DNA of 64,000 bases from an uncultured Gammaproteobacteria bacterium. Its GTDB lineage: Bacteria; Pseudomonadota; Gammaproteobacteria; Steroidobacterales; Steroidobacteraceae. The stretch covers positions 36,926 to 100,925 of the forward strand of contig CAVQAZ010000007.1 of NCBI GenBank assembly GCA_963710595.1, written 5' to 3'. Positions 3,927-41,609 of this stretch are shown piece by piece. Both the position numbers and the translations under genes were made by a program. Within the stretch, counting starts at the first letter, position 1; the number at the start of each line of letters is the position of its first letter. Below the pieces are notes generated by a model. It was not told where the DNA came from, searched no databases, and was given only the letters and a program-made list of their open reading frames with translations.

Positions 3927-3952
3927 GCAATGTCGTCCTTGATCACTGGGCA

Positions 3953-5230
3953 CTATGCTTGGCCGCCGTGGCTCGCAGGAGCGTGCTTGGGCTCGTCGTC
4001 CGGTACATACTCCGAACCGAATGCGTAGTAGCGCTGCCGCTGCTCGGGCGTGAGGCCCTCGAGCCGCTCCACCGTGTCCAGGAACCATCGTGTCCTGGGA
4101 TTTTCGGCGCGGTAGCCCTTTTTGAAATCCACGCCCGATACATAGGTGTTAGCTACGAAGCCAAACGGGCGCAGGCTGCCGAAGTGATGCGCTACATGCT
4201 GGTTGCATGTTTCCACGCTGGCGAGCCTGCTGAAGGGAAACACACCGGGAATGTATTGGTGGCCCATCATGTCGCTGATGCAGCCGCCGAACCAATAGAA
4301 CTGCGCGACCAGCACGCTGTCGAGAAAATCCAGCCAGGTGATGACTCGATCGGCGCTTTCCAGAAAACCGGTGCCGCCCGCCGCTCCGATCATGGCCGAC
4401 GGAATGGCATCGTGGTGATGTCCGTGGAACACGGTGAAGAAAAATCGCGAGCTGTGGTCCTTCTCGTGGTTCTCCTCGAACAGACGAAAGTGAGCGAACC
4501 GTCGCCATGGCGTGCCGTCGCCGCCGCGCTCGCGGGAGACATAGCTGCCGGTCAGCGCGGCCACGACACACCAGAGCACATAGCCGCCGAGCAGGAGGAC
4601 TTCGCGGAGGACCGAAGGGTTGGTCAATTTATAGAAGATCACGCAGGGCGCGAGCATGCACAGATGCGCGATCAGACCGGTGATGAACGCATGAACGATG
4701 TGCGTCCGGATCGACACACCGGCGAAGTTCTGCCGGATCGGCGAATCCTCGAGCACCTCGCGCACCCGATCCGCCCGCAACAGGTGTGCAATCAACACGC
4801 TGATGCGGAATGCAGTGATGAGGGCAAAGGGAATCCAGACGATCCACCACCACGGCAACGGCGCCAGCCAAGAGGTTCCGCTCAGCGTGGGACGTAGCGC
4901 CGCCTCCACCACCAGCGCAAGCGCGAATATGCTGACCGCCTGAAAAACCCTCGCGCGGATCGACCACCAGCTGCGAACGACCGCGGCGGGATAGCGCGCC
5001 ATGCCCACCAGAAAAACTCGGAGCGATTTCGGGTCGACGCTCCAGCCATGCTTCCTTGGAAACAGCCAGGCCAGATAGAGGAGCGCCGCGCACAACGTCG
5101 AATGGAACGCCGGATGGTCCAGGACCGGCCAGATCACCGCGCCGGTCAGCACCAGCGAGCAGAGATAGAGCAGAAAGTCTTCGCCTCGATAGCGCAGAAA
5201 GAACTTCTGGCGGGCATTGTGCGTGATCAT
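3953..5230 (-). CDS. Membrane diiron His-box enzyme, fatty acid hydroxylase/sterol desaturase-like (425 aa)
   Basis: C-terminal part of track ORF 3953..6124. The start is reset to MITHNARQ (ATG 5230, GGAGG upstream). Several hydrophobic helices and His boxes HEKDH, HGHHH and HVAHH. Confidence 0.7.
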   Translation of the reverse strand: MITHNARQKFFLRYRGEDFLLYLCSLVLTGAVIWPVLDHPAFHSTLCAALLYLAWLFPRKHGWSVDPKSLRVFLVGMARYPAAVVRSWWSIRARVFQAVSIFALALVVEAALRPTLSGTSWLAPLPWWWIVWIPFALITAFRISVLIAHLLRADRVREVLEDSPIRQNFAGVSIRTHIVHAFITGLIAHLCMLAPCVIFYKLTNPSVLREVLLLGGYVLWCVVAALTGSYVSRERGGDGTPWRRFAHFRLFEENHEKDHSSRFFFTVFHGHHHDAIPSAMIGAAGGTGFLESADRVITWLDFLDSVLVAQFYWFGGCISDMMGHQYIPGVFPFSRLASVETCNQHVAHHFGSLRPFGFVANTYVSGVDFKKGYRAENPRTRWFLDTVERLEGLTPEQRQRYYAFGSEYVPDDEPKHAPASHGGQA

Positions 5231-6235: not shown

Positions 6236-7033
6236 CTAGGTGCGCTCCCAAGGAAACAGACCCGTCTCTACGTAGCGTGTGATGCTGGCGATGTTGGCAG
6301 GATCGCGGAACACTTCCTTGTTGGCCGCGATGGCCGCCGGCCGGTCGGCGACGACCGAGACGCCGAGCCCGTTCACGAGACGTTTGTAGCGCGCGATGGC
6401 CGTTCTGTTGAGCCGTCTCAGCCGGAGCAGATGCTTGCGCAACAGCGCTTCGCTGTTGGCGCCGCTCGCATCCACCAGTCCCCACTGCAGCGCCTGTGAT
6501 ACATCGATGGCATGCGTCATTGCCGTCAGGTAATGCGCCTTCTGAAAACCGACGCGGCGAATCAGGAACGGCAACACGCACGCCGGCACTAGTCCGAACA
6601 GCAGCTCCGAGAGACTGAACACCGCCGTCTCATCCGCGATCACAATGTCGCTCGCAGCGACGAAGCCCATCCCGCCCGCGTTCGTCTTGCCTCGCACATG
6701 CGAGACCACGAAGAACGGTGCCGTCGTCAGACGCAGCCACAAGTCATAAAGAGGTTCCGGTGATGGCTCAGACGCCGGCTGGCCGCCGCCGTTGTTGGCA
6801 ACCGCACGCATTTCCCCGAAATCGGCGCCGAAGCAGAACACGTCCGGCAGGCCCTCCAGCACCAGCACGGTGACGGGCTCATCACAACAACGCTCGATCA
6901 CGGCGGCGCACTCACTGATCAGCTGGCCGTTGATCGTGTTGTTCGCCTCGGGACGATGCAACTGCACGAAGCAGATGCTGTCCTGGAACCGCACCTGCAG
7001 CGTTTCGTAGGTCGTCTGTCGAACCGTGGCCAT
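6236..7033 (-). CDS. pksH: Beta-branching enoyl-CoA hydratase/dehydratase ECH1 (PksH-like)
   Basis: Start reset to ATG 7033 (MATVRQTTYETL), which overlaps the HMGS stop (TGATG). Motifs HRPEANNTIN, FCFGADF, LSELLFGLVPA. Confidence 0.9.
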   Translation of the reverse strand: MATVRQTTYETLQVRFQDSICFVQLHRPEANNTINGQLISECAAVIERCCDEPVTVLVLEGLPDVFCFGADFGEMRAVANNGGGQPASEPSPEPLYDLWLRLTTAPFFVVSHVRGKTNAGGMGFVAASDIVIADETAVFSLSELLFGLVPACVLPFLIRRVGFQKAHYLTAMTHAIDVSQALQWGLVDASGANSEALLRKHLLRLRRLNRTAIARYKRLVNGLGVSVVADRPAAIAANKEVFRDPANIASITRYVETGLFPWERT

Positions 7034-8295
7034 CACGACAACCACTCGTACTCGCGATGGAACTCTTTGATCTCGCGCAGTACCAGCCGCGGTCTGTTCT
7101 TGCCGGCGCGCGCGACCTCGCGACACACCTCGTCTTCCACCTTGACGTTGCGGGTGCCGAACCGCAGCTGGCTGTTGCTCATCAACAAGGAGTCGTATTG
7201 CTGCATCGACAAGGGATAGCGTTCATCGAGTTGCTGCCCGATCTTGCGCCGACGTAGCGCCAACTGCCCCTCCTGATGCGCCACGCCGCTATAAAACTCC
7301 GAGCAGCAGCCCGAGCCGTAGGAGAAACATCCGATGCGGTTGGCGGATTGAAAGTTGCCGTTGTCGATGGTGCTCGCCAGCGACAGCAATGAGGTCGCCC
7401 CCATGATGTTGCCCACCCTGCGGCAATAGGTGAGTCCCGGCACCACGCGCTGGTGAAAATCCGCTTCGATCTCCGCGGGCTTCGCCGCCGTCCACTTGCG
7501 CATCATCGAGCGGTGAGCGCCCTTGATCATGCCGCCGAACGGAGTGTGAAACGCCAGGTACTGAAATGACGTGGCGTAGTCGACGTCACTGACTCTCTTG
7601 CTGTATTCCTGGAACGCATTCTCACAACAGTCGAGGTACGACAGCAGCGACAAATCCGCATCGCCCGCCTCCATGTCCGGCGCCGGACGGCAGGTGTCCA
7701 TCACCTCGTAGCCGTAGTAGCCATTTGCACCGACATCCATTTCGAACACCAGCGGCCGACTGCTAACGAGCACCGCGACAGCGCCGGCGCCCGCACTGGG
7801 CTCCGCGAATGACCAGTCTTGCGTCAACGCGTCGCCGCCCTCGGCGACCATGAAGCGCGAAATATCCGTCGCGACCACCAATGCCTTGGCACCGGGAGAG
7901 ACTTGCGACAGGATGAAGTTCACCGCCATCTGCAAACCCGCAGTTCCGGAGTAGCAGGCTTGTTTTATTTCGAACAGGCGGCAATTGCGATTCAGTTGCA
8001 AGTGGCGGTGCAGGTAAGTGCTGATGGACTTGCCGAAGTCGATGCCGGACTCCGAGCACGCAATGAGCAGCTCGATCCGATCTTTGTCGGCCGGCGGCAG
8101 CGCATCGAGGATGGGCTTCGCGGCATTGACGCCGAAGGTGATCGGGTCCTCATCGGGCAGGGCCACCGTCTTCTCATCCATCAACAGGTTATTGAACCGA
8201 ATCGTGTCCAGTCCGCGATGCTCAGCCAGCTGCCTGACGTTCAAGCAGGCCACGCCGCCGAACACATTCATTGCCTCGATGCCCACGAGTGCCAT
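7033..8295 (-). CDS. pksG: HMG-CoA synthase-like beta-branching enzyme (PksG-like)
   Basis: EIKQACYSGT (catalytic Cys), FHTPFGGM, FSYGSGCCSEFYSG. Confidence 0.93.
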   Translation of the reverse strand: MALVGIEAMNVFGGVACLNVRQLAEHRGLDTIRFNNLLMDEKTVALPDEDPITFGVNAAKPILDALPPADKDRIELLIACSESGIDFGKSISTYLHRHLQLNRNCRLFEIKQACYSGTAGLQMAVNFILSQVSPGAKALVVATDISRFMVAEGGDALTQDWSFAEPSAGAGAVAVLVSSRPLVFEMDVGANGYYGYEVMDTCRPAPDMEAGDADLSLLSYLDCCENAFQEYSKRVSDVDYATSFQYLAFHTPFGGMIKGAHRSMMRKWTAAKPAEIEADFHQRVVPGLTYCRRVGNIMGATSLLSLASTIDNGNFQSANRIGCFSYGSGCCSEFYSGVAHQEGQLALRRRKIGQQLDERYPLSMQQYDSLLMSNSQLRFGTRNVKVEDEVCREVARAGKNRPRLVLREIKEFHREYEWLS

Positions 8296-8661
8296 GCAAA
8301 CGTACTCCAGGTTAGCTGCCGCGTTGCCGACGCAACGTGATGTTCATTGCACTGAATCCCGTGTTGCACGTCAATGCATGCCGGAGCAACGATGCGGCAG
8401 CGCCCGGGCTTACTCAGCGCGAGTCGGCGCCAGGCGCTCTGCTGAATGTTTATTTGCCGACGACACTACAGAGTTTCCAGTGCGGCACGCGCCCATCGGC
8501 CACCGCGAGCAGGAGCACGCAGGCCAGCGGCGTGCTCACCCAAGCCGAATGCATTTTTTGGCGGCCGGAGGCGGGGCCGCGCCGAGCGGCGCGACCGGAC
8601 AGGGCGTCAGACAAACCCGGCGTTACTCGGGATCGTCATGCGGATGCCGGTGATCCCCGTT

Positions 8662-8910
8662 TCACGAGCCGCGCAGTCTTTCGTGCAGCAGATCGGTCAA
8701 TTCGCCGAGATTGCGGGCGCCGAACAGCTCGACGCGGGGAATACGCAGCGCCAGCGACTCCAGCGTCATCGTGACGATCTCCGCACGATCGACTGAATTG
8801 GCACCGAGTGCGGCCAGTTGATCGGAAGGTTTGAAAGAATGGTCCTGCAGCTGTGGCAGCACTTCGCGCGCGTGACCCACGATGACGGCGAATAATGCTT
8901 CTTTGTTCAT
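8662..8910 (-). CDS. acpK: Donor acyl carrier protein for beta-branching (AcpK-like), copy 1
   Basis: 82 aa from MNKEALF; LGANSVDRAEI motif. Confidence 0.88.
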   Translation of the reverse strand: MNKEALFAVIVGHAREVLPQLQDHSFKPSDQLAALGANSVDRAEIVTMTLESLALRIPRVELFGARNLGELTDLLHERLRGS

Positions 8911-8946
8911 GATGCTTCGGCTCCTTGCTGATGCCATGGAATCTCA

Positions 8947-10332
8947 TCAGGTCCACTGACGCGACTGCACAGTGGTTCGTGTACTCGCCTGCGTGGCCAC
9001 CCACTGGTTCAAGTGCTCGGCGGTTCCCTCCAGCAGTCGTCGCGCGATATCCGCCACGTAGCGCTTCTGCCAAGGAAATATTTCCGTGTTTCGCACCCAT
9101 TGATTGAACGCGCCCAGGGCCGGCCCGCAATGGATCTGGTAATCGACTCTCTGCTCCCGCTCACCGCGCAGGGCGAGACGGGTCGAGTGAACGAAATACC
9201 ATTTGAATATCAATGCCATCTTGCGCTTGGGGGACACTTCGATGTCCGCGTTCGGGCGCCGCCTGGCGAGGTAACTGCGCGTTTCCTTCCACACCTCATC
9301 GATGCTGCGCCGGAAATATTTCTCCTCGATCTGACGCAGGATGGCGGGATCGATTTCACCCAGCGAGCCGTGCCGCTGATAGAGCTCGTACAGCCTGTTT
9401 GCCCGGGCCGGGAACAACAACCCTCGTTTCACCACCTGCACCTTGGCACCGAGCTCGAACAGGTCGCCGGCGGGCGCATAGGCAGTGTCTTGCACGTTAA
9501 TCTGTTGCAGTAGCGCCTTCACATCGTCGCTGGTGCCTGCTTCCCGGGTACATTGATTGATCGAACCGGTGAGGATGAAGTCCGCGCCCATCATGAAGGC
9601 GGCAGCCGCCGCATGCGGAGTACCGATGCCGCCGGCGGCACCGACACGAATGCGCCTTTCATAGCCGTGCCGCTCCATCATTTGATCCCGCAACATCATC
9701 ATCGCGGGGAGCAAAGCGTAAGCCACGCCTTGATCCGTATGGCCGCCGGAATCGGCCTCCACGCAAATATCATCGGCAACGGGAATGGCGTGAGCAAGCT
9801 CGGCTTGCAGCTCGGAGATCTGACCGGACGCGAGCAGCGCCTTCACGAGGCTCTGCGGTGCCGGCTGCATGAACGCCGCGGCAATTTCCGGACGCGATAC
9901 TTTGGCGAGCATGCGATGAGCCGAATGCAGCTCGCCCGTCTGGCTGCGACCGATGCCTTGCAAGCGGTAGCGAACCAGGCTCGGTGTGATATTCATGAAG
10001 GCCGCGGCCTCGACATGACGGATGCCATGCGCCAGGTAGAGATCGACGGTGCGCTCCTCCAGGTCCGGCCGCTCGGGATTCGCCAAAAGATTCATTCCAT
10101 AGGGTTCACCGTGCGTGAGCTCCGCTTGGATATGACGGATGGCTGCTGCAACGGCGTCCAACTCGAGCCCACCCGTGCCCAGAAATCCCATCAGCCCCGC
10201 TTTGCCCAGCGCAACGACCATCTCCCTGGATGCGATTCCCTTGTACATGGCGCCAGCCAGATACGCGTACCTGAGCCCATAGTCGGCCTTGAATTGCGCG
10301 TCTCCGAGTGAAGCTGCCGTAATCTGGCGCAT
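8947..10332 (-). CDS. PfaD/FabK-family trans-acting enoyl reductase
   Basis: YLAGAMYKGIAS, VEADSGGHTD, GAAGGIGTP and YQIHCGPALGAFNQW motifs; no AT domain fused. Confidence 0.88.
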   Translation of the reverse strand: MRQITAASLGDAQFKADYGLRYAYLAGAMYKGIASREMVVALGKAGLMGFLGTGGLELDAVAAAIRHIQAELTHGEPYGMNLLANPERPDLEERTVDLYLAHGIRHVEAAAFMNITPSLVRYRLQGIGRSQTGELHSAHRMLAKVSRPEIAAAFMQPAPQSLVKALLASGQISELQAELAHAIPVADDICVEADSGGHTDQGVAYALLPAMMMLRDQMMERHGYERRIRVGAAGGIGTPHAAAAAFMMGADFILTGSINQCTREAGTSDDVKALLQQINVQDTAYAPAGDLFELGAKVQVVKRGLLFPARANRLYELYQRHGSLGEIDPAILRQIEEKYFRRSIDEVWKETRSYLARRRPNADIEVSPKRKMALIFKWYFVHSTRLALRGEREQRVDYQIHCGPALGAFNQWVRNTEIFPWQKRYVADIARRLLEGTAEHLNQWVATQASTRTTVQSRQWT

Positions 10333-10409
10333 GCTTCGTCCTTTGCTGAGCGAGCGGCCCGCGTGGCGACGACCTGCCGGTGCGGAAACTGCGTGCTGCG
10401 CGTCCAGTG

Positions 10410-11651
10410 CTATGTGGAAGTCTCGTCCGCCAGTCCCCAGCGTTCCAATCTCCGAACCAGCAAGCCCAGGAAATGATTTGCGCGTGCGCCGTCCACGACA
10501 CGATGATCCAGCGTGAGGGTCACGTAGCAGCGTGGCCGCACCACGATGCGATCCTCACCTAGCTCGCTAATCACGACGGCGCGCTTCTCCAGCTTGCCCA
10601 CGCCCAGGATGGCCGATTGCGGCTGCTTGATGACGATGGGCGCAGCCAGCAGGCTGCCGCTGACGCCGTGATTGGAAATCGTGAATGTGCCGCCGCTCAC
10701 GTCCGCCGGTAGCAGCCGGCCCTCACGCGCACACCTCACTAACCTGCTCAGTTCACTCGCGATTGCGAACAGATCCAGCGTCCGCACATTGCGGATCACC
10801 GGCACGAGGAGTCCCCTGCCCGCCACGGCCGTGGCAACGCCGATGTCCACTGTGTCGTGCATCAACAGGGCATCCGGTAGCCAGCGACTGTTGATCTCCG
10901 GCACTTCGGTCAGCGCGGCGGCACTCGCTGCGAGAAAATAGGCGGTGAGCGTCAGTGCGGCACCCCGCCGTTCGAACTGCGCACGATGCTTTTCTCGATG
11001 TGCCAACACTGCGGTCAGATCGACTTCGAACACGGTGGTCACATGAGGCGCCGTGCGTAGCAAACTCTCGACCATGAGATCAGCAGTCCGCAGCCGCGTC
11101 GTCGAGTGTGGGACGCGCCGACTAGCCGGCTGCGCCTGTGCGTTCGCGACCGCAGTCTCGGGGCTCGCGCTACGATTCGCTACATATGCGAGCACATCAG
11201 CAACCGTCACTCTCCCACCCACTCCGCTGCCGCGAAGCTCCTCGGAATCGATCGAATGTTCCTTGAGCAGACGGCGAACCGCGGGGCTGTGACGTGCCGA
11301 ATTCGGCATCCCCAGGTGAGCGGACCACGCAGCGGCGCGACTCGATCCAGCAGGCTTTGCGGCACTTTCGTCGAGTGCGCCGCTCGCCAGCTGCGCCGTT
11401 TGCATCTGCTCGGTCTGAATGAACGCCAGCACCTCTCCCGGCACAATGTCTTCACGTGCCTGCTTGAGCACCCGCTGCAGCACCCCGCTGGCCGGTGCCG
11501 GAATCTCTACGACAACCTTGTCAGTCTCCACTTCGATCAGCGGTTCGTCCCGGGTGACGGGTTCGCCCACCATCTTCAGCCAGCGCTGCAACTGCGAGCG
11601 CGTCCCTTCGGACTGCTCACACGGCGCGCACACTGCAATCATCGCTGTCAT
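10410..11651 (-). CDS. 2-oxoacid dehydrogenase E2 (dihydrolipoamide acyltransferase)
   Basis: Start reset to ATG 11651. Lipoyl motif EVETDKV, binding domain HSPAVRRL, catalytic LDHRVVDG. Confidence 0.88.
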   Translation of the reverse strand: MTAMIAVCAPCEQSEGTRSQLQRWLKMVGEPVTRDEPLIEVETDKVVVEIPAPASGVLQRVLKQAREDIVPGEVLAFIQTEQMQTAQLASGALDESAAKPAGSSRAAAWSAHLGMPNSARHSPAVRRLLKEHSIDSEELRGSGVGGRVTVADVLAYVANRSASPETAVANAQAQPASRRVPHSTTRLRTADLMVESLLRTAPHVTTVFEVDLTAVLAHREKHRAQFERRGAALTLTAYFLAASAAALTEVPEINSRWLPDALLMHDTVDIGVATAVAGRGLLVPVIRNVRTLDLFAIASELSRLVRCAREGRLLPADVSGGTFTISNHGVSGSLLAAPIVIKQPQSAILGVGKLEKRAVVISELGEDRIVVRPRCYVTLTLDHRVVDGARANHFLGLLVRRLERWGLADETST

Positions 11652-11655
11652 TGAT

Positions 11656-13755
11656 TCAAAAGCTCGCCGTTTGTTCGATGGCCTGCATGATGCGCGCGAC
11701 GCTGGGCACCACCGAATCGAGCAGCACGGGGCTGTGCGGGCTCGGCACATCCGGCATGGTGATGCGGTCGATGGGTGCATCGAGATCGAAGAACACTTCC
11801 TTGGTGAGCGTGGCCGCAATCTCGGCGCCGAAGCCGGCCGTGAGATTGTCCTCGTGCACGATGAGGCAACGGCGCGTCTTGCGAACCGAAGCGATCACCG
11901 CATCACGGTCCCACGGAATCAGCGTACGAAGGTCGAGCACTTCCACATCGAGCTCGGACTGATAAGCCGCGGCTTCGCAGCGCTCGACCATGGCGCCCCA
12001 GGAAACAATGGTCAGTTGAGTACCGACTTGTGCGATCTTTGCTTGCCCGAAGGGCACGATAAAGTGATCTCCCGGATAGGGACGCCGTGCCCAGGCGGCA
12101 TCCAGCATGGCGCGGTGCTCGAAAAAAATCGTCGGATCATTGCCGCGCAATGCCGAGCGCAACAGGCCGACAGCATCCTCGGCGTTCGACGGCATGGCCA
12201 CGCGCCAACCGATGGCGTGCGCGAACTGCACTTCGTTGCTCTGGCTGTGCCAGGGATCGCCGGACTTGGAAAAGCCGCCCGGCATGCGCACTACCATGGG
12301 TGCGGCAAAGCGGTTGGCGGTGCGCCATCGCAGCGTGCCGCAATCGTTGAGCTGCTCGGTCGCCGGATCGGCGTACTTGCGGAACTGAATCTCCGGCACT
12401 GGCATCAGACCGGCTAACGCCATGCCCACCGCCCGGCCGATGATTCCTTCTTCGGACAGGCTGGTATCGAACACGCGCGCTTCGCCGAATTTTTCCTGCA
12501 GTCCCACAGTGGCGGCGTGCACGCCGCCTTTACGGCCCACATCTTCGCCGAACACCACGACGCGGGGATTGACGGCAAGCTCATGCTCGAGCGTGCGGCG
12601 GATCGCTGTGAGCATGTTTATTCGCGGCCCACTGGGTTGCGGCACCGATACTCCCAGCAACGGCTGCACGCCGTCGGCCAGCATTCCGCCCTGCTCCTGC
12701 ACTTCCACCGAACCATCGGGGAGATGCTCACTGAATGAAAAGCGTACGGTGGTCTGGGCATCCGGTTCCGCGCGCTGCTCCACTCGAGCCAGCGCCTGCT
12801 CCACTTCCTCGCTAGCACGCTGCTGCAACAGTGCCCATGCCTCGGCCGATATCACCCGCGGCACCAACTGCTCACGCAATCTCGGAAGCGGATCGCGCTC
12901 CAGTTCGGCGGCGATCTCCTGTGGCGATCTATATGCCTGGGTGTCCTGACCCGAATGGCCAGCGAGGCGCGGAACCTGGATGCGCAGCAGCGCCGGCCCC
13001 TGCCCGCGCCGCACGACTTCGACAGCATGCTGAATCTGCGAGGCAGTGCCGCTGGGATCGCGGCTATCAGCTTCAAGGATGCGCAGGTTACGAAACGAAC
13101 CGAGATTGGCGGCGATGTTGCCGCCGGGAGTCTGCAGGTCCGACTTCACCGAAATGCCATAGCCGTTGTCTTCGATGAAGAACAGCACCGGCAGCCGCTG
13201 AGTTGCCGCAATGGTGAGCGCCGCCCAGAAGCCGTTGGTGGCCACCAACCCGTCGCCGCCATGGGCCACCGCGATGCTGTCCGCCCACTGGGACTCCTGC
13301 AGCGTGTTCGTTCTATAAACAATCGCCTGGGCCCAGCCAACCACCTGCGTGTATTGCGCGCCCACGCCACCACAGGCGGGCAACACGCAGGCGCCATCCC
13401 GTCGTGGCAAGTTGAATACGACGCCGATGTCGCGACCCTGGCTGACGCTGCCCACGCGCATCATGGTCGAAGCCAGCGCATCCTCCGTAGTCAGTCCCAA
13501 CGAAAGCAGCAGAGGACGCGAGCGGTAGTAGACACCCACACCGTCGCGCGCGCCGGTGAGCATCTGGCCGAGGATTGCCTGCGTCACGTCGTGACCACGC
13601 GCAGTGAATTGATAAATAATCTTGCGTTCCGGCAGCAGCCGCGATTCTTCGAGCGCGTCCAGCGCGCGAGAGAGCAGCACCGAATACACGACCTGGGACC
13701 AATCAATCCGCGTGGAGCCGCTGGGCGCCGCACTTTCCAGAACCACTGCCGACAT
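11656..13755 (-). CDS. Fused E1 alpha/beta ThDP-dependent 2-oxoacid dehydrogenase (branched-chain type)
   Basis: Start MSAVVL (ATG 13755, GAGGTG upstream). ThDP motif GDG...EDN; beta-part motifs FGEDVG, FDTSLSEEGIIG, PEIQF. Confidence 0.88.
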   Translation of the reverse strand: MSAVVLESAAPSGSTRIDWSQVVYSVLLSRALDALEESRLLPERKIIYQFTARGHDVTQAILGQMLTGARDGVGVYYRSRPLLLSLGLTTEDALASTMMRVGSVSQGRDIGVVFNLPRRDGACVLPACGGVGAQYTQVVGWAQAIVYRTNTLQESQWADSIAVAHGGDGLVATNGFWAALTIAATQRLPVLFFIEDNGYGISVKSDLQTPGGNIAANLGSFRNLRILEADSRDPSGTASQIQHAVEVVRRGQGPALLRIQVPRLAGHSGQDTQAYRSPQEIAAELERDPLPRLREQLVPRVISAEAWALLQQRASEEVEQALARVEQRAEPDAQTTVRFSFSEHLPDGSVEVQEQGGMLADGVQPLLGVSVPQPSGPRINMLTAIRRTLEHELAVNPRVVVFGEDVGRKGGVHAATVGLQEKFGEARVFDTSLSEEGIIGRAVGMALAGLMPVPEIQFRKYADPATEQLNDCGTLRWRTANRFAAPMVVRMPGGFSKSGDPWHSQSNEVQFAHAIGWRVAMPSNAEDAVGLLRSALRGNDPTIFFEHRAMLDAAWARRPYPGDHFIVPFGQAKIAQVGTQLTIVSWGAMVERCEAAAYQSELDVEVLDLRTLIPWDRDAVIASVRKTRRCLIVHEDNLTAGFGAEIAATLTKEVFFDLDAPIDRITMPDVPSPHSPVLLDSVVPSVARIMQAIEQTASF

Positions 13756-13942
13756 TGCTTCACCTCGTGTTCGAAGGCGCAACGAGCTCCGAGCTTAATC
13801 AGCTACCTCGGAGTGAAGCGCTGGATTTCTCCATACCACCGCAGCGGCCGGTCACCCAAAAACCCGACAGCAACAGCACCAACACTGCCTCGATCAATAC
13901 CGATGCGTCCAGCTCGCGCCGGTGTCAAAGCAACAAGCCTAG

Positions 13943-14052: not shown

Positions 14053-14943
14053 CTAGGATGCCGTGTCGATATTTCTGCGGCGGTGCGCCGCCTGCGTCGT
14101 GATGTTTGCATGCAGCACCGACTGGCCATCGAGAATCTTCGCCACTTCGTGCTGAATGCGCTCCTGAACTTCATCGGTGGCCACTTCTATGGGCAGGGTC
14201 ATGGCTATCAAACTGCGGTGCTGCCTGATCCGCAGGATGGGTACTCCGCCCTCGCTCCTGATGACCCGTTCGGCAGCCTGTAATTTCTTTTTGCGGCCCC
14301 GGCGCGCCGGGGTCAGCAGCTGGCGAAAGACCTCACCGGCGGCCGGACGCGGCCTCGCTCCAATCTCGCGCGCGCGTTGAATAATGGACTTTCTGCGACC
14401 CGGGTCTTGAATGGCGTCGTCGATATCCAGGCCCCATCGTTCACAAATGTCGGTACCGCTTTCGAACGCGCCGACGATGACGCTCGGCAGACGCGCGAGC
14501 CTGATCAGGCGCGACACCTGCGATGTGGAAATCTTCAATGCCTTGGCGATGTCCTCCTGCGAGCTGAAGTGGCCGGCCCGCAGCCAACGCGCATAACACA
14601 TGCCTCGCTCGTAAGGGCTCAGGTCCTTGCGTTTGTGATTCTCCGTATCGAGCGCGATCACCGCCTCCTTGTCCGACAGATCGCGCAATTCGGCCAGCAG
14701 CGGTCGGTTCAGAAAACGCGCGACGAACAGCCGGCGCGCGCCATAAATCAACTCGATGTCGTGCTCCGGATCGTTCTGCAAGCGCCGCCCGAGCACAGGA
14801 ATAAGCTGCCCGTGTTCAAGAAAGCTCTTGATCTCATCCTCGCAGGTTGCTTCATTGACGCTGCTGTCGATCCGATCGTGGCCCTTCCAGAGGCGACAGC
14901 GCACAGGGTTCACCGAAACAATCGTCCGATTCTCATCGACCAT
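14053..14943 (-). CDS. ParB/RepB/Spo0J-like protein 1
   Basis: GQLIPVLGR, YGARRLFVA and ENHKRKDL motifs of the ParB N-terminal domain, then HTH SQEDIAKALKISTSQVSRL. Confidence 0.85.
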   Translation of the reverse strand: MVDENRTIVSVNPVRCRLWKGHDRIDSSVNEATCEDEIKSFLEHGQLIPVLGRRLQNDPEHDIELIYGARRLFVARFLNRPLLAELRDLSDKEAVIALDTENHKRKDLSPYERGMCYARWLRAGHFSSQEDIAKALKISTSQVSRLIRLARLPSVIVGAFESGTDICERWGLDIDDAIQDPGRRKSIIQRAREIGARPRPAAGEVFRQLLTPARRGRKKKLQAAERVIRSEGGVPILRIRQHRSLIAMTLPIEVATDEVQERIQHEVAKILDGQSVLHANITTQAAHRRRNIDTAS

Positions 14944-15099
14944 AGATCCTCACTCTCTATTCCATGGAGCATGGATTCTCGCCCCGCGATGTGACGTCGG
15001 CGTTGCAACAAACCACACTGGCATGTGCGGCTGCTGGACACGCCGCAGGTGCTCGCGGCGCGCATTCGCGTCACGAGCACCTGATGCTTGCTACATCTT

Positions 15100-15987
15100 T
15101 CAGGTTTGTAAACCGGAGTAGTAGGACGACGATGCGTTGGGGTGATCGATATATCGGGCTGTGCGCCGCGTGCTCAGGTCCCGCACGATGCGCAGGACGG
15201 CATCCTCAATTCGCTCGAGCGCTTCTTCTGATACTCTGTCGGCGGGAAACAGCAGAGTGAACGCGCGAGACTGGCGCCTGACTCGAAACAGCGCGCTTCC
15301 GCTCGCACCGGTGACGGTTTCTTCGCACGATCTGCCGCTGCGCCGTCGATCCCACGCGACGCTCTGCAGGAGTCTTTGGTAAATCTCGAGCACCGGAGGG
15401 CGTGGAGTCATCCCGCGGATTTCATTCGCGACGCGGCTGAGCAGCGGGCGCTTCTCAACGTCTTCCCACATCTCCACCAACTCCAGTCCCCATCTTTCAC
15501 GCATGTCGGCCGGATTGGCGAATGCGCTCACGATGCTGCTCGGCAGCTGGGCGAGTCGCAGTAGTCTCGACACTTGCGAGTTGGAGAGATGTAAGGCACG
15601 CGCCAAATCTTCCCGTGACTTGAAGTATTCCGCGCTCAACCATCGAGCGCAGCTGCGCCCCCGCTCATAGGGGCTGATGTCCCGGCGCTGGCGGTTCTCG
15701 ATATCCATCGCGATGATCCCGTCGCGATCGGAGATGTCCTGCAGCTCAACCGCGAGCGGCATGTTGAGATGCCGTGCAACGAACAGGCGACGCGCACCAT
15801 AGATCAGCTCGACCTCATACACGGGATCGCCTTTCAAGCGCCGCCCCCGAGTTGGAATCAGTTGCCCCTCCTTGAGGAAGCTTTCGATCTCGACCTTGCA
15901 GGTTTCCTCGGTGATCTCCGTGTCAAGCCGCTCGTGCAAATCCCACATACGGCATCGAAACGGGTTCACCAGACTGAGCTCGCTCAT
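15100..15987 (-). CDS. ParB/RepB/Spo0J-like protein 2
   Basis: Start reset to MSELSLVNPF (AAGGAG upstream). GQLIPTRGR, YGARRLFVA, ENRQRRDI, then HTH SREDLARALHLSNSQVSRL. Confidence 0.85.
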   Translation of the reverse strand: MSELSLVNPFRCRMWDLHERLDTEITEETCKVEIESFLKEGQLIPTRGRRLKGDPVYEVELIYGARRLFVARHLNMPLAVELQDISDRDGIIAMDIENRQRRDISPYERGRSCARWLSAEYFKSREDLARALHLSNSQVSRLLRLAQLPSSIVSAFANPADMRERWGLELVEMWEDVEKRPLLSRVANEIRGMTPRPPVLEIYQRLLQSVAWDRRRSGRSCEETVTGASGSALFRVRRQSRAFTLLFPADRVSEEALERIEDAVLRIVRDLSTRRTARYIDHPNASSSYYSGLQT

Positions 15988-16331
15988 TTCAAACTCTCCT
16001 TTTTCGCAACCCCGGCCGCCTCCCGCAGCCGAGCCTTCCGCAGCATGCTGTGTTTTGACCCCCGCTCTCGCCACTCGCTCACTTCAGCTTTTTTTAAACA
16101 AGCAATGCGCCGCCTGCCCTACGCCGACATTCAGAAACATCTGCTCATGCGCATAGCGACATCTTTTTGTTCCATGCACACCGTCAAATCCGCAACAATG
16201 CATGAAGGCGGTCAACACCCATCCGGGCACCGAATCCAACATCTTGGCACGATACGTCTGCCACGCGTACGACACGCGAGACCCGGGACTGAATCGTCGC
16301 ACCCCATTGGATAGATCCGCCGTCACTGTGA

Positions 16332-17573
16332 CTAGTCATCAATGGACACGTTGCGCAGACAAATCGCGGTGTTGATGCCGCCAAAACCTATGCTCAGGTT
16401 CAGGGCGTTGCGAATCGTGCGCGCCAGCGGCTCTTGCCGCACCCAATTCAGCTCCGGCTTGAGGGGTTCCTGCAGATTTCGACTGGGATGCAGGAACCGG
16501 CTCCTCATCTGCAGCAACGTGGCGATGATCTCAACGGTGCCGGCGGCGCTGAATCCATGGCCCACGATCGACTTGGTCGCGTTGATATGCGCATGCGACA
16601 GCCCGGCGGCCATGATCGCGCTCGCCTCAATCTCATCGCCCATCCAGGAGCCGGTGCCGTGTGGATTGACATAGTCGATGTCGCGGGGCTCGAGCCCTGC
16701 GCGTCTCAAGGCGTTGTCAATCACCCTGATTTCACCGGCGAGCGACGGATCGGGGTTGCGATGTGCATCCATCACCGTCGCTGAGCCGGTCAGCACCGCG
16801 TACGGCTTGACGCGATTCCTGCTGACGGCCGACAGGCGTTCCACCACCACGGCGCCACAGCACTCACCAAAAATGAAGCCATCCCGTCCCTTGTCGAAAG
16901 GCCGGCAAGCCAACTCCGGACGATCCGCGTAGCGATCGCTTCCCATCGCACCTGTCGCGCGCAGAGCGTGGCACTCCCAGTACGACAGATCCATGAGGGC
17001 GCCGACGGCGATACAGACGTCTACTTGTTGTGATTGCACGGCTTGGACGGCCTGCAGTATGGATAGCTGACCACTTGCGCATGCCGCACCGACGGTGTAC
17101 GCGAAGCCGCGTATGTTGAACTGTTCCGTGCACCAACCGCACAGATCACTATCCAGGAAGGCAACCCCATAGCTGGGCCGCAGGAAGCGCATGCGCGCTG
17201 AGTGCTCCTCATGAATTCGCGTGAGCTCGCGCTGTTGACAGTTCGACCCGCCGATAATGAGGCCGATTCGATACGGATCGACGGAGTCGAGGTTGGCGTC
17301 CTGCCAAGCCTCATGCACAGTCATCATCGCCGCCTGCGCGGACAGCGAAGCTGAGCGCTGCGCGCGTGATGAAAGCGCTGCCGGCAACTTGAGCTCCGGC
17401 AACTCGGCGCCGATGAATGCGGAATCCTTCTGCCTTCCGGGACGCTGCATGACGCGAAAAGCATGGCGCCCTTCCTTGAGCGCCGCTTCGAATGCTCGAC
17501 GGCCCTGACCCACCGCGGTGAGTACACCGACGCCAGTGATCGCTACATCAGTAGAAGCGTCTTTCCTCTCCAT
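16332..17573 (-). CDS. Stand-alone KS of the beta-branching (PksF-like) family, retaining the active-site Cys
   Basis: YTVGAACASGQ (TGC at 17079-17081), NPHGTGS, KSIVGH; clear paralog of 19860..21074. Confidence 0.88.
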   Translation of the reverse strand: MERKDASTDVAITGVGVLTAVGQGRRAFEAALKEGRHAFRVMQRPGRQKDSAFIGAELPELKLPAALSSRAQRSASLSAQAAMMTVHEAWQDANLDSVDPYRIGLIIGGSNCQQRELTRIHEEHSARMRFLRPSYGVAFLDSDLCGWCTEQFNIRGFAYTVGAACASGQLSILQAVQAVQSQQVDVCIAVGALMDLSYWECHALRATGAMGSDRYADRPELACRPFDKGRDGFIFGECCGAVVVERLSAVSRNRVKPYAVLTGSATVMDAHRNPDPSLAGEIRVIDNALRRAGLEPRDIDYVNPHGTGSWMGDEIEASAIMAAGLSHAHINATKSIVGHGFSAAGTVEIIATLLQMRSRFLHPSRNLQEPLKPELNWVRQEPLARTIRNALNLSIGFGGINTAICLRNVSIDD

Positions 17574-17716: not shown

Positions 17717-18907
17717 CTACTCCAGAACTTTCGACACCACACCCGCACCCACGGTCTTGCCGCCTTCGCGAATCGCAAAACGCGATCCGTCCTCCATCGC
17801 GATCGGCGCGATCAACTCGACCGCCATCTTGACGTTGTCGCCGGGCATCACCATTTCCACGCCCTCCGGCAGCTCCACCGCGCCGGTTACATCCGTGGTA
17901 CGGAAGTAGAACTGCGGGCGATAGCCTTTGAAGAACGGCGTGTGGCGCCCACCCTCCTCCTTGGTCAGCACATACACTTCGGCCTCGAACTTCGTGTGCG
18001 GCTTGATCGAACCGGGCTTCGCCAGCACCTGCCCACGCTCGACCTCTTCGCGTTTGGTACCGCGCAGAAGTACGCCCACGTTGTCGCCCGCCTGACCTTC
18101 ATCCAGCAGCTTGCGGAACATCTCAACGCCCGTGCATATGGTCTTCGTCGTGGGCCGCAACCCCACGATCTCCACCTCGTCGTTCACCTTGAGAATGCCG
18201 CGCTCGATACGTCCGGTGGCAACCGTGCCCCGCCCGGAAATGGAGAACACATCCTCAACGTGCATTAGAAACGGCTTGTCGATCTCACGCGGCGGCGTGG
18301 GAATATAACGGTCCATTTCCTGCACCAGCTTGACCACCGAGGGCACGCCGATTTCGCTCGTGTCGCCTTCCAGCGCCTTGAGCGCCGAGCCCTTCACGAT
18401 CGGCGTCGCGTCGCCAGGGAAGTCGTACTTCGACAGCAGCTCGCGCACTTCCATATCCACCAGTTCCAGCAGCTCCGCGTCGTCCACCATGTCCGCCTTG
18501 TTCAGGTACACCACGATGTACGGCACGCCCACCTGGCGAGCCAGCAAAATGTGCTCGCGCGTCTGCGGCATCGGGCCGTCAGCTGCGGAAACCACTAGAA
18601 TCGCTCCATCCATCTGCGCGGCGCCCGTGATCATGTTCTTCACATAGTCGGCATGCCCCGGACAGTCGACATGCGCGTAGTGGCGGTTCGCACTCTGGTA
18701 CTCCACGTGCGCCGTAGCGATCGTGATCCCGCGCGCTTTCTCTTCCGGCGCCTTGTCGATCTGATCGTAGGCCATGAATGTACCGCCGTGCGTCTCGGCC
18801 ATGACCTTGGTCAAGGCCGCGGTCAACGTCGTCTTGCCGTGATCCACGTGTCCGATCGTGCCGACGTTCACGTGCGGCTTGGTGCGCTCAAACTTGTTCT
18901 TCGCCAT
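17717..18907 (-). CDS. tuf: Elongation factor Tu, paralog outside its normal genomic context
   Basis: 396 aa, [28 protein letters not shown]; full length and no frameshift. No fusA/rps or tRNA/secE neighbours. Confidence 0.98.
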
Positions 18908-18971: not shown

Positions 18972-19415
18972 TCATTGCACATTTCCCGTTTCGACCACCT
19001 GGGAAATGAGCTCGAGCAGACTGGCGCTCCACCGCGGGCCGCCGAACACAACCACCTTCAATTCGTTGCGCTCCTGGTCATACATCGACTCCAATCGCAC
19101 TGGCTCCTCGTCGCGTCGCTCCGCTCTCACGGCGCCCATCAGCACCGTGGTCAGCCGATCCGCGGCGCCGCGGCTGAGCGCTTCGATCCGCACCACGGTG
19201 GACACAGAGACGCGTCCGTGACTGCTGACCGCGTTCGGATCGAACTCCACCACCGGACGGCCCAGCAAAGCTTCGATATCTTCCTTCGCGATTCGGTATT
19301 GCTTGCCAATGCGCTTGGCCCGCAACCGCCCGACTCTCACGTAGTTGCGAACCGTTTTGACATGCAACTTCAAGAGATCGGCGACTTGATCAATGGAATA
19401 CAATTCCTGTGCCAT
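18972..19415 (-). CDS. Excisionase/MerR-like (HTH_17-type) DNA-binding regulator with C-terminal domain
   Basis: MAQELYSIDQVADLLKLHVKTVRNYVRVGRLRAKRIGKQYRI; alternative ATG at 19430. Confidence 0.8.
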   Translation of the reverse strand: MAQELYSIDQVADLLKLHVKTVRNYVRVGRLRAKRIGKQYRIAKEDIEALLGRPVVEFDPNAVSSHGRVSVSTVVRIEALSRGAADRLTTVLMGAVRAERRDEEPVRLESMYDQERNELKVVVFGGPRWSASLLELISQVVETGNVQ

Positions 19416-19445
19416 CGTACCAACCCTCATTGGGATGAAAACGGA

Positions 19446-19859: not shown

Positions 19860-21074
19860 CTAGTACTTTTGTAGACACAGCGCTGTGTTTATTCCACCAA
19901 ATCCCATGCTGAGCGTTAGTGCATTCACCATCGGATGCGCGACGGGTTGCTCTCGCACCCAGTTGAACGATGGATCAATGGGGTGATCGAGGTTGCGCGT
20001 GGCATGTAATCGGCCCGCCCGCATCTGCAGTAGCGTCGCGATCACTTCGACAGCGCCGGCAGCCGACAACCCATGCCCGATGATCGACTTGGTCGCATTC
20101 AAACGAGCCTGCGTGAGCTGTGTGGCACGCAGCGCGCTCAGCTCGGTTTCATCACCCACGACCGATCCCGTCCCGTGCGGATTGACGTAGTCGATGTCCT
20201 TCGACGCGCATCCCGCTCGCCGCAGCGCGCTGACGATCACCTTGATCTCCCCTTCCAACGAGGGATTCGGGTTGCGATTCGCATCGATGGCGACACCCCA
20301 CCCGGAGACGCGCGCGTAGGGAGTCATGCCGGAGCGCGGGCGCGCGTCGGCCCTCTCGATCACGACAGCGCCACAACACTCTCCATAAATGAAACCGTCA
20401 TGGTCCCGATCGAAAGGCCGCGAAGCGTGCTGCGGCTCACTCGCGTAGCGGTCTGAACCCATGGCGCCGAGGGAGCGAAATCCCTGGCATTCCCAATGAG
20501 ACAGATCCATCAGCGCTCCGAGAGCGATGCAGATATCGACCTGCTCGCACAACACCGCTTGCATCGCCTGGATGATGGCGAGTTGCCCGCTCGCCGAAGC
20601 TCCCCCCACGGTGTAGGCCAGCCCCTGGATGCCGAACTGCTCGGTGCACAAACCGCACAGGTCCGTGTCCATGAACGACAGGCCGTAGGTCGGACGCAGG
20701 AACTGCGTTCGTTCCGAGTACGCCTCGTATGTTTGCACCTGGCTGCGCTGCTGAAGGTTCGAACCGCCGATGATCAATCCGATCCGCGTCGGGTCCGCAT
20801 CACTCAGGCGCGCGTCACTCCATGCCTCGTGCAGCGTGACCAACCCCGCCTGCGCTGTGAGCGACGCATTTCTGAGGTGCTGCGGCGAAATGCCCGGAGG
20901 CATGCCCATTGACGGAATCTCCGCGCCGAGAAAGTTCGAAGCTTTTTGCCTTCCCGGCCGCTGCATGACACCGAATGCATTGGGCGCTTCGAACAGCGCT
21001 CGCGAGAACGCCTGCGCTCCTTGCCCGATCGCCGAGGTGACGCCGACGCCGGTAATAATCACTTCAGGCCGCAT
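19860..21074 (-). CDS. pksF: Beta-branching decarboxylating KS (Cys to Ser), PksF-like
   Basis: YTVGGASASGQ (TCG at 20595-20597), NPHGTGS, KSIIGH. Start at ATG 21074 or GTG 21086, overlapping the ACP end. Confidence 0.9.
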   Translation of the reverse strand: MRPEVIITGVGVTSAIGQGAQAFSRALFEAPNAFGVMQRPGRQKASNFLGAEIPSMGMPPGISPQHLRNASLTAQAGLVTLHEAWSDARLSDADPTRIGLIIGGSNLQQRSQVQTYEAYSERTQFLRPTYGLSFMDTDLCGLCTEQFGIQGLAYTVGGASASGQLAIIQAMQAVLCEQVDICIALGALMDLSHWECQGFRSLGAMGSDRYASEPQHASRPFDRDHDGFIYGECCGAVVIERADARPRSGMTPYARVSGWGVAIDANRNPNPSLEGEIKVIVSALRRAGCASKDIDYVNPHGTGSVVGDETELSALRATQLTQARLNATKSIIGHGLSAAGAVEVIATLLQMRAGRLHATRNLDHPIDPSFNWVREQPVAHPMVNALTLSMGFGGINTALCLQKY

Positions 21075-21312
21075 GGAACTTTTCACGCAGCAGATCCGCC
21101 AGTCCGCCGATGCTTTCCGGCCCGAACGCCTCGTGGCGGGGCATGTCGAGCGACAGCTCCCCTAGCACCAGCGTGATGATCTCGGCGCGATCGACGGAGT
21201 CGGCGCCGAGCGACTGCAGCCGGTCGCTGTCGATGAAAGCATGATATTGCAAATCCGGCACGACCTCCTGGGTGTACCGGACAATCAGCTCGAAGATGTT
21301 TTGTCTGTTCAT
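21064..21312 (-). CDS. acpK: Donor acyl carrier protein (AcpK-like), copy 2
   Basis: 82 aa from MNRQNIFELI; LGADSVDRAEI motif. Confidence 0.88.
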   Translation of the reverse strand: MNRQNIFELIVRYTQEVVPDLQYHAFIDSDRLQSLGADSVDRAEIITLVLGELSLDMPRHEAFGPESIGGLADLLREKFHAA

Positions 21313-21374: not shown

Positions 21375-22277
21375 CTAGTTCCCGGATGTGCGCAGTTCTC
21401 GAGCCGCCGCCGGTTCCGCATCCTGCCGGATCTGCTGCACCAGACGCGTCAGCACGTTTCCCGGACCAATCTCCTTGAACTCCGTCACGCCGCGCGCGAG
21501 CAAAAAGCGAATGGTTCGTGTCCATTGCACCGGGCTCTTGATCTGATCGGCGAGCCCGGCCTTGATCGCGGACGAGTGATCGCTCGGATAGGGCGCAGCG
21601 TTCACGTTTGCAATCACCGGGACCCGCGCCGCTGAGAAAGGTATCGGCGCGATGAATTCATTGAACGTTTGCGCCACATCGCTCATGTACCGGGAGTGAA
21701 ACGCGGCGCTCACCTGCAACGGCATGTACATGCTCGCGCCGGCTTCCTCGAACAACGGAGCCGAGCGTTGGATGTCTGGCACCGGCCCGGAGATCACGAT
21801 CTGCTTGGGCGCATTGAAGTTCGCCACGTCAACGCCGCTCAGGCGATTCTCCGCGAGCACTCGCGCGACCTGGTCGGCATCCAACCCGACTACCGCCGCC
21901 ATGGCGCCGTTTCTCATTCGCGCCATGAGCTCGCCGCGTTTGATCACCAGGCGCAACCCGGTGAGAAAATCGAAGACTCCCGCCACGAGCAACGCGTTGT
22001 ATTCGCCGAGACTGTGTCCCGCGACGTAGCTGGGATGCGCGCCCTGACTCAATGCTTTGTAGTAGTACAGCGCGTTGACCACATAGAGACTGGGCTGAGT
22101 ATGTTGAGTCTGCTTCAGCTTGTTGTCCGGATCTTCCAGACAGAGTTTGCGCATCGAGTATCCCAACAGCTCATCGACGCTCTTCTCCACAGAGGTGAAC
22201 TCGCGCACCTCGTCAAACAATTGCTGACCCATGCCTCGATATTGAGAACCCTGGCCCGGGAACAAAAACGCGATCAC
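21375..22277 (-). CDS. Trans-acting malonyl-CoA:ACP acyltransferase (FabD/PksC-like)
   Basis: GTG 22277 after AAAGGAGG; FPGQGSQ, GHSLGE, AFHS (malonyl-type). Confidence 0.92.
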   Translation of the reverse strand: MIAFLFPGQGSQYRGMGQQLFDEVREFTSVEKSVDELLGYSMRKLCLEDPDNKLKQTQHTQPSLYVVNALYYYKALSQGAHPSYVAGHSLGEYNALLVAGVFDFLTGLRLVIKRGELMARMRNGAMAAVVGLDADQVARVLAENRLSGVDVANFNAPKQIVISGPVPDIQRSAPLFEEAGASMYMPLQVSAAFHSRYMSDVAQTFNEFIAPIPFSAARVPVIANVNAAPYPSDHSSAIKAGLADQIKSPVQWTRTIRFLLARGVTEFKEIGPGNVLTRLVQQIRQDAEPAAARELRTSGN

Positions 22278-22572
22278 TTCACACCTCCTTTGGTTGCGGC
22301 GCGCATGTTGCTGCATTTCCGGTCACACGTCCCGCGCCTTCCTTGTCCTGCAATGTTTGTACTCGAGTTACTCAATGTCGACCAGTGGAACTGCCTGGTC
22401 GAGCCGCAACGGCTCGCGATCGTTGTGATCACATGCCAAGCACACGGGCCGCAACGTGACTCGAATGTCCTCTTGCAAAGTTACATGGAAACAAAACCGA
22501 TCTATTGGGAATCGCCAGCCCCATCGCTCCCGGCTAAGGACATTGGCGATGCGACGAGACAATCACAGTGCA

Positions 22573-41342: not shown

Positions 41343-41609
41343 ATGACTACGCTTGCCCAGGTCGCCGAGGCTTTGAAAGACATCCGGCGCCAGGAAAAGC
41401 TCACTCAGGGGGAGCTGGCGGCGCGCGCTGGCCTGGCTCGATCCACCGTCACCCGCCTGGAAACCTTGGCCCAGGGCGACATCGGCATGTCCGCTTTCCT
41501 GCGTCTGCTGGAAGCGGCCGGTTATGACCTGAAAGTCGTCAAGACCGGCAGCATGCGCACACTCACGGACATCCTGGCCGAACAGCGCCGCGGTGAGACC
41601 TCTAAGTGA
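41343..41609 (+). CDS. hipB: HipB-like XRE antitoxin
   Basis: LTQGELAARAGLARSTVTRLE HTH; overlaps the hipA start (GTGA). Confidence 0.85.
   Translation: MTTLAQVAEALKDIRRQEKLTQGELAARAGLARSTVTRLETLAQGDIGMSAFLRLLEAAGYDLKVVKTGSMRTLTDILAEQRRGETSK

Follow-up and report, generated by a model that had tools for sequence, protein, structure and literature searches.

A tuf gene embedded in a trans-AT polyketide cluster encodes an EF-Tu with His213 and Ser372: a candidate self-resistance copy

Elongation factor Tu (EF-Tu) is a validated antibacterial target, clinically unexploited, for which few inhibitor classes are known. Polyketide chemistry is directed at EF-Tu by pulvomycin, kirromycin/aurodox and enacyloxin IIa, and macrolactin A has been proposed as an EF-Tu-directed polyketide as well (bioRxiv 10.1101/2024.02.10.575802); the assembly lines of kirromycin and macrolactin are described in the literature as at least partly of the trans-AT type. 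The known resistance alleles, from laboratory strains and from producers, are point substitutions in an otherwise normal EF-Tu, and they affect L120, Q124, Y160, G316, Q329, A375 and E378 (kirromycin/enacyloxin), R230, R333 and T334 (pulvomycin) or V226, G257 and G275 (GE2270A/thiopeptides).

Resistance-guided mining for elfamycins has its precedent in actinomycetes, with the EF-Tu3/tuf3-type copies of Streptomyces. These are divergent additional tuf genes that stand beside the housekeeping copies and are used, or have been proposed to be used, as a spare insensitive target. Resistant extra EF-Tu copies are known in Streptomyces as 'elfamycin-resistant type EF-Tu' (PMC9361827), and mining pipelines have flagged EF-Tu among the self-resistance genes near PKS clusters (bioRxiv 10.1101/2020.06.01.128595). 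Few genomic features predict the mode of action of a compound as strongly as a copy of its target lying within the biosynthetic cluster.

Here we describe a third tuf gene lying inside a polyketide cluster in the genome of an uncultured gammaproteobacterium. Like the EF-Tu3/tuf3-type genes, it is a divergent additional copy to which the same target-directed mining logic applies (duplication, BGC proximity and phylogenetic incongruence). It differs from them in its Gram-negative host, in its association with an orphan trans-AT PKS, and in carrying none of the known resistance substitutions, its insensitivity being a candidate property. In the literature searched we found no report of a tuf gene embedded in a trans-AT cluster of a Gram-negative bacterium, nor of residues 213 or 372 as resistance sites. 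We propose, with a probability of about 0.62, that the cluster EF-Tu is a spare, drug-insensitive target (a self-resistance copy) for a putative EF-Tu-directed polyketide.

The third tuf gene and its polyketide neighbourhood

The window, that is, the whole 64,000-nucleotide stretch of DNA analysed here, corresponds to C7:36926-100925 of a 7.9-Mb, 9-contig assembly. Three tuf loci are present in this genome. The two housekeeping copies are located on contig C6, in the contexts fusA-tufA-rpsJ and tRNA-tufB-secE-nusG of a tufB-secE-nusG...rpoBC-rpsLG-fusA-tufA layout; we call the host Gram-negative because of this layout and because the nearest EF-Tus are gammaproteobacterial-like. PKS accessory genes (KS, KS0 and AT) border the third copy on either side in the same orientation, and a trans-AT assembly line of 13,000 aa is found 12 kb away; no ribosomal genes were seen near this tuf copy (Table 1).

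Table 1. Coordinates of the cluster tuf gene, its codons of interest and the surrounding features in the window.
Feature	Position	Strand	Evidence
Start of the 9009-aa trans-AT PKS (acyl-AMP ligase-ACP-KS loading region), extending left of the window	1..4088	(-)	
Accessory biosynthetic genes: ECH, HMG-CoA-synthase-like, trans-ER (FabD insert + NMO), E2 and fused E1 of a 2-oxoacid dehydrogenase	6236..13782	(-)	
Pair of ParB/RepB-like genes, separating the biosynthetic genes from the KS-tuf block	14053..16074	(-)	
Free-standing PksF-type KS, active-site Cys kept (ACASG), directly downstream of tuf	16332..17573	(-)	NF005490, 610 bits
Third, cluster-embedded tuf gene, intact EF-Tu, 396 aa	17717..18907	(-)	ORF + TIGR00485
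Codon TCG, Ser372; host and close relatives have Leu	17783..17785	(-)	Alignment + frequency counts
Codon GCC, Ala227; Val in host and 120/120 nearest relatives	18218..18220	(-)	Alignment + frequency counts
Codon CAC, His213 (E. coli numbering); nearly all EF-Tus have Pro	18260..18262	(-)	Alignment + frequency counts
HTH_17/excisionase-MerR-like regulator gene, 64 nt upstream of tuf	18972..19430	(-)	Pfam HTH_17 2.6e-13; TIGR01764
Free-standing PksF-type KS, Ser for Cys (ASASG), upstream of the HTH-tuf pair; serves the beta-branching cassette as decarboxylase	19860..21086	(-)	
Free-standing acyltransferase (trans-AT)	21375..22316	(-)	Pfam Acyl_transf_1 2e-39

Two further PKS proteins, of 2248 and 1910 aa, come after the 9009-aa PKS, and together the three megasynthases comprise about 11 KS with RhiE/CurL-type linkers, KR, DH and one methyltransferase. 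No integrated AT (Acyl_transf_1) was detected in the megasynthases, the AT and AT-ER-like proteins being encoded separately, which makes this a trans-AT PKS cluster, and it is an orphan one. The assembly line runs off the contig end. Past the 1910-aa protein, the next PKS gene, which has a PS-DH domain, falls apart into several short ORFs at C7 1-1190 (L231), where the contig ends; the cluster is incomplete there and probably carries indel errors. Enacyloxin clusters are marked by halogenases, a carbamoyltransferase and DHCCA genes, of which no sign was seen in the window.

Two PksF-type KS genes were seen together with a single HMGS, and the ParB/RepB-like genes form a tandem pair without ParA. 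Elsewhere on contig C7 the genes are of chromosomal type (TPR proteins, hybrid sensor kinases), and plasmid functions were not seen there. Farther along the window, two giant minus-strand ORFs at 45970-61916, one of 3456 aa with DUF11/SdrD-like repeats and one of 1859 aa with OmpA domains, probably represent a surface adhesin system, and a HipA-family kinase toxin gene (HipA_C + Couple_hipA) is found at 41606-42946.

The association of tuf with its neighbours was not encountered elsewhere: no EF-Tu was found at 19 loci encoding homologues of the adjacent KS, nor at 14 loci encoding homologues of the HTH regulator. Full-length relatives of this regulator, with 43-49% identity, occur in a dozen Nonomuraea genomes (loci L243-L255, from Nonomuraea and Streptomyces). 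At L255, the one Nonomuraea locus examined, the relative lies between a gene for an AlkZ-like DNA glycosylase, a known type of self-resistance enzyme, and a DUF4180 gene, and in Euryhalocaulis it adjoins hydrolases; the regulator may be one of a family associated with resistance or stress genes.

The product of the cluster gene has the attributes of a regular EF-Tu. It scores 755.7 bits against the TIGR00485 EF-Tu equivalog (cutoff 522.4), with residues 1-396 covering profile positions 1-394, that is, the full length. An AF2 model (pLDDT 85, GTP form) shows the three-domain fold, a G domain and two beta-barrels, and Foldseek matches it to 1EXM/1EFT/1TTT with a TM of 0.93. The GTPase and aa-tRNA pocket residues H84, H66, E215, D216, F218, T228, N273 and R288 are all in the E. 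coli state. It is a bona fide EF-Tu under purifying selection: dN/dS (omega) between the cluster gene and host tufA is 0.08 (dS 0.85), which shows the cluster gene to be constrained and working.

Non-canonical residues of the cluster EF-Tu

A previous sequence-only reading of this DNA had singled out a His and a Ser in the cluster EF-Tu, P213H and L372S in E. coli numbering, and had proposed them as a new resistance allele. Both residues were borne out on the minus-strand ORF. The numbering, which follows the mature protein and took an E. coli EF-Tu sequence as reference, is right by alignment, and its offsets agree with those of the alignment to PDB 1EFC (query 3-395 = chain 2-392). Contrary to the first refuting condition of that reading, neither residue is shared with the host housekeeping genes: both copies have P213, V227 and L372 and read FLMPVEDVF...GTVVTG.

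The classic resistance positions were likewise correctly described as wild type. L120, Q124, Y160, R230, G257, G275, G316, Q329, R333, T334, A375 and E378, together with V226, are the E. coli residues in both the cluster copy and host tufA. There is accordingly no substitution in the cluster EF-Tu at the kirromycin/enacyloxin sites (120, 124, 160, 316, 329, 375, 378), at the pulvomycin sites (230, 333, 334) or at the GE2270A/thiopeptide sites (226, 257, 275), V227A next to the last group being a common natural variant. The cluster copy thus differs from the known alleles in the sites affected, while 372 adjoins R373/A375 and 213 lies in the hairpin that bears V226-R230.

We considered whether the odd residues are errors of long-read assembly or sequencing. 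Indel-type problems do exist in this assembly, as seen in the fragmented PKS ORFs at the contig end and in host tufB (C6 about 372232; L003 about 1505-1510), where a TTT run has lost 1 nt (GAGTTTGCAC in tufA, GAGTTGCAC in tufB), so that the gene is split at codon 38. Against this stands that H213, A227 and S372 each lie two base substitutions away from the host codon (CCG>CAC at 213, CTG>TCG at 372) and are therefore not of the indel or homopolymer type, that the cluster tuf ORF is intact, and that its 10% divergence from the host copies spans the whole gene; an artefact is highly improbable. The tufB frameshift itself is either an assembly error or a real pseudogene, and in the latter case the host would have only one intact housekeeping tuf.

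In the strand register predicted from the AF2 model (E. coli 211-213, 216-220, 224-233), residue 213 is placed roughly opposite 230-232 in the first hairpin of domain 2. Position 372 is directly N-terminal of the 373-378 strand of domain 3, which bears R373, A375 and E378. Both residues may plausibly lie near the three-domain junction (pulvomycin region), as the sequence-only reading had it. In this EF-Tu strand the side chains of 372, 374 and 376 point to the face opposite to that of 373, 375 and 377, so that Leu372 is more likely a packing residue than a ligand contact.

How unusual the residues are was assessed in three samples. Among the 120 nearest homologues, position 213 is Pro in 119 and Ser in one, position 372 is Leu in 114 and Val in six, and position 227 is invariably Val (120), leaving His213 and Ser372 at 0/120 each. 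In a diverse sample of 150 representatives of 50%-identity clusters, chosen independently of sites 213/227/372, residue 213 is P in 101, S in 17, A in 10 and H in a single case (1/138); residue 372 is L in 62, Q in 13, M in nine, T in seven and S in five (5/107, about 5%); and residue 227 is V in 77 and A in 51 (51/137). Finally, a degenerate-codon scan of 185,579 species genomes with the pattern F-x-x-H-[LIVMF]-E-D-V-F-x3-G-R-G-T-V returned 83 H213 loci. Given a pattern sensitivity of about 72-77% (the Pro version matches 216/301 genomes of the phylum), His213 is estimated to occur in roughly 0.04-0.06% of species. A scan of the species genomes for S/T/C/R372 yielded at least 120 loci; among the matches listed, Planctomycetota, Omnitrophota and many Anaerolineae typically have S372, and Campylobacterota typically have T372.

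The description of the two substitutions as non-canonical therefore stands for H213, found in about 80 of the 185,579 species genomes, and does not hold for S372 as a very rare residue, given its share of about 5% of diverse EF-Tus. Of the three residues, only H213 is a genuine rarity; S372 is moderately uncommon, and A227 stands out in this clade alone. When the cluster EF-Tu was screened for atypical residues (frequency <=3% at positions with >=60% consensus), H213 and the conservative E150D were the only two obtained, and host tufA gave none, which makes H213 the most atypical single residue of the protein.

Relationship of the cluster copy to other EF-Tus

His213 is not confined to biosynthetic clusters. 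Wherever neighbouring marker genes were recognisable, the 83 H213 loci are in a housekeeping context, by fusA/rpsJ or secE/nusG. Most of them are from Dehalococcoidia and combine H213 with P227 and L372. H213 occurs with S372 in seven loci, mostly from Anaerolineae/Chloroflexia MAGs plus one Bacillota MAG, and with Q372 in four (two alphaproteobacterial MAGs, a Liberibacter and a Desulfobacterales MAG). In a gammaproteobacterial MAG whose EF-Tu is 88% identical to the cluster copy, both tufA and tufB encode H213, and a metagenome scan for M-H213...[S/T/C/R]372 gave one match, a housekeeping tufA. These housekeeping proteins (Dehalococcoidia, some Anaerolineae with S372 and scattered Proteobacteria with L/Q372) are 65-88% identical to the cluster copy and have residue 213 in common with it, but they are sole or operon-encoded EF-Tus whereas the cluster copy resides in a PKS cluster. 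No related PKS was found in the 20 genomes with housekeeping H213 that were examined. By these comparisons His213 is compatible with normal EF-Tu function and arose several times; its presence in housekeeping EF-Tus means that His213 alone is no proof of resistance, and the H213/S372 pair could be a neutral lineage variant.

Across Dehalococcoidia, His213 with Pro227 is the lineage-typical state of the housekeeping EF-Tu (loci L009-L091), which raises the side question of whether this class is naturally insensitive to some EF-Tu inhibitor.

A specific coupling between positions 213 and 372 was considered and dropped. Raw co-occurrence in the pooled, ascertainment-biased sample amounts to seven H/S, four H/Q and 13 A/S proteins, which at first hinted at a contact pair. 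When lineages were compared in pairs on the pooled tree, significance was not reached (median p about 0.6). Among the unbiased representatives, non-Pro213 is associated with a polar residue 372 (OR 3.2, p 0.009), and a consensus/non-consensus column screen gave OR 2.8 and p 0.02 for 213 versus 372. The latter ranks only 31 of 340 columns, since 30 others show an association with non-Pro213 that is no weaker; proteins without Pro213 simply diverge more along their whole length.

Beyond the residues singled out, the cluster copy is 90% identical to the host copies, and its 40 differences from host tufA are scattered across the gene, with several cluster-specific ones crowding at 193-236. They include V201T, E203P, A205E and G208K in the domain 1-2 linker, as well as V227A, V236L (E. 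coli I236) and E150D. A self-resistance EF-Tu whose insensitivity is due to determinants other than His213/Ser372, be it these other differences or an extra or induced dosage of EF-Tu, would account for this concentration, and it would agree with S372 and A227 being common elsewhere and with the ordinary housekeeping EF-Tus that carry H213. The linker changes weaken this explanation: V201T, A205E/D and G208K are also carried by P0093, P0098 and P0114, housekeeping EF-Tus of related uncultured lineages (loci L238-L241), and V201T/A205E/G208K look like lineage background because they are found in these related housekeeping genes. At conserved sites, moreover, only H213 stands out. Other determinants are thus a rather unlikely source of the insensitivity, if one to be kept in mind. 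One of these three proteins has P213S in both tufA and tufB, again in housekeeping genes.

In a tree of 125 EF-Tus, the cluster copy is not sister to the host tuf genes, tufA/B falling in a starred 21-row clade that excludes it. It is a singleton in a collection of 5.8 billion proteins, in which its nearest relative has 92% identity, and it is about equidistant (90-92%) from all sampled relatives. Its terminal branch measures 0.097, against a median of 0.008 in the tree, because close relatives are lacking. Accelerated evolution of the cluster EF-Tu was considered and rejected, as relative-rate tests gave neither a significant result nor a surplus of unique changes, and omega is 0.08.

This even distance, the unremarkable relative rates and the low omega would also fit a tuf gene that has no resistance role, namely a housekeeping-type gene from an unsampled donor lineage that travelled with the cluster or was inserted into it, H213 and S372 being neutral polymorphisms. 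H213, H213 with S372 and P213S in housekeeping genes elsewhere, the 88%-identical gammaproteobacterial proteins among them, speak in the same direction, and the ParB-like genes in the cluster hint at mobility. Such a passenger would nevertheless have to have come without any ribosomal-operon neighbours, and to be located by chance, intact and constrained, as a third EF-Tu between two same-strand PKS accessory genes and with its own regulator, which is hard to credit; it would also have to carry two residues that are each absent from the 120 closest EF-Tus. We regard this origin as unlikely.

A proposed spare EF-Tu for self-resistance

Self-resistance remains the reading that we favour for the cluster EF-Tu. 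As sought by ARTS-type mining, an essential gene is duplicated (three tuf loci), one copy is inside a biosynthetic cluster, and phylogeny sets that copy apart from the housekeeping gene. By contrast, a BGC that is just a neighbour of the str operon, as in the case of berninamycin (PMC9290621), would not count as a duplicated-target case.

We envisage that the cluster polyketide would bind EF-Tu, that the cluster tuf is probably switched on with the pathway through the HTH regulator upstream of it, and that its product would keep delivering aminoacyl-tRNA while the two housekeeping EF-Tus are inhibited. Two ordinary-looking host EF-Tus remain in the cell, and a spare copy can therefore rescue it only if sensitivity is recessive. 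Elfamycin genetics ties recessive sensitivity to inhibitors of ternary-complex formation, as opposed to those that jam the ribosome. The drug is consequently predicted to block ternary-complex formation, in the mode of GE2270A or pulvomycin, rather than to jam the ribosome in the mode of kirromycin. Pulvomycin sensitivity was reportedly described as dominant by Zeef et al. in 1994, which would complicate a spare-copy mechanism for a pulvomycin-like drug.

That EF-Tu is the target, that the cluster copy is insensitive and that H213/S372 cause this insensitivity are the parts that we infer. His213, which ends the first strand of domain 2, would be the most likely determinant, with Ser372, in front of the R373-E378 strand of domain 3, and Ala227 as possible helpers; we name His213 as the leading candidate only tentatively, and P213H/L372S is better viewed as a hypothetical new resistance allele and a mining lead than as a demonstrated allele. 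Several observations weigh against self-resistance: no known resistance position is altered, no related PKS was present in the H213-bearing genomes examined and no related tuf-bearing cluster was found among the loci with KS or HTH homologues, overall dN/dS is low and the relative-rate test gave no acceleration. In addition, His213, being tolerated in normal EF-Tus, may be neutral.

A more far-reaching and doubtful extension is that this Gram-negative trans-AT PKS produces an EF-Tu inhibitor of a new class, with P213H (+ L372S) as a previously unknown determinant. The binding site of the inhibitor would be unlike those of kirromycin, enacyloxin, pulvomycin and GE2270A and might comprise the domain 1-2 linker together with the first strand of domain 2 and the 372 loop of domain 3. 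Were this true, P213H could be used as a probe for further producers.

The presence of His213 in the normal EF-Tus of whole lineages such as Dehalococcoidia tempers its claim as a resistance marker. Extra resistant EF-Tu copies are already known in streptomycetes, and the cluster tuf described here is a good mining lead. If the cluster copy is insensitive, the chemotype or its binding site would likely be new, given the Gram-negative host, the orphan trans-AT PKS and the lack of known resistance signatures, and His213 would offer a cheap sequence marker for resistance-guided mining.
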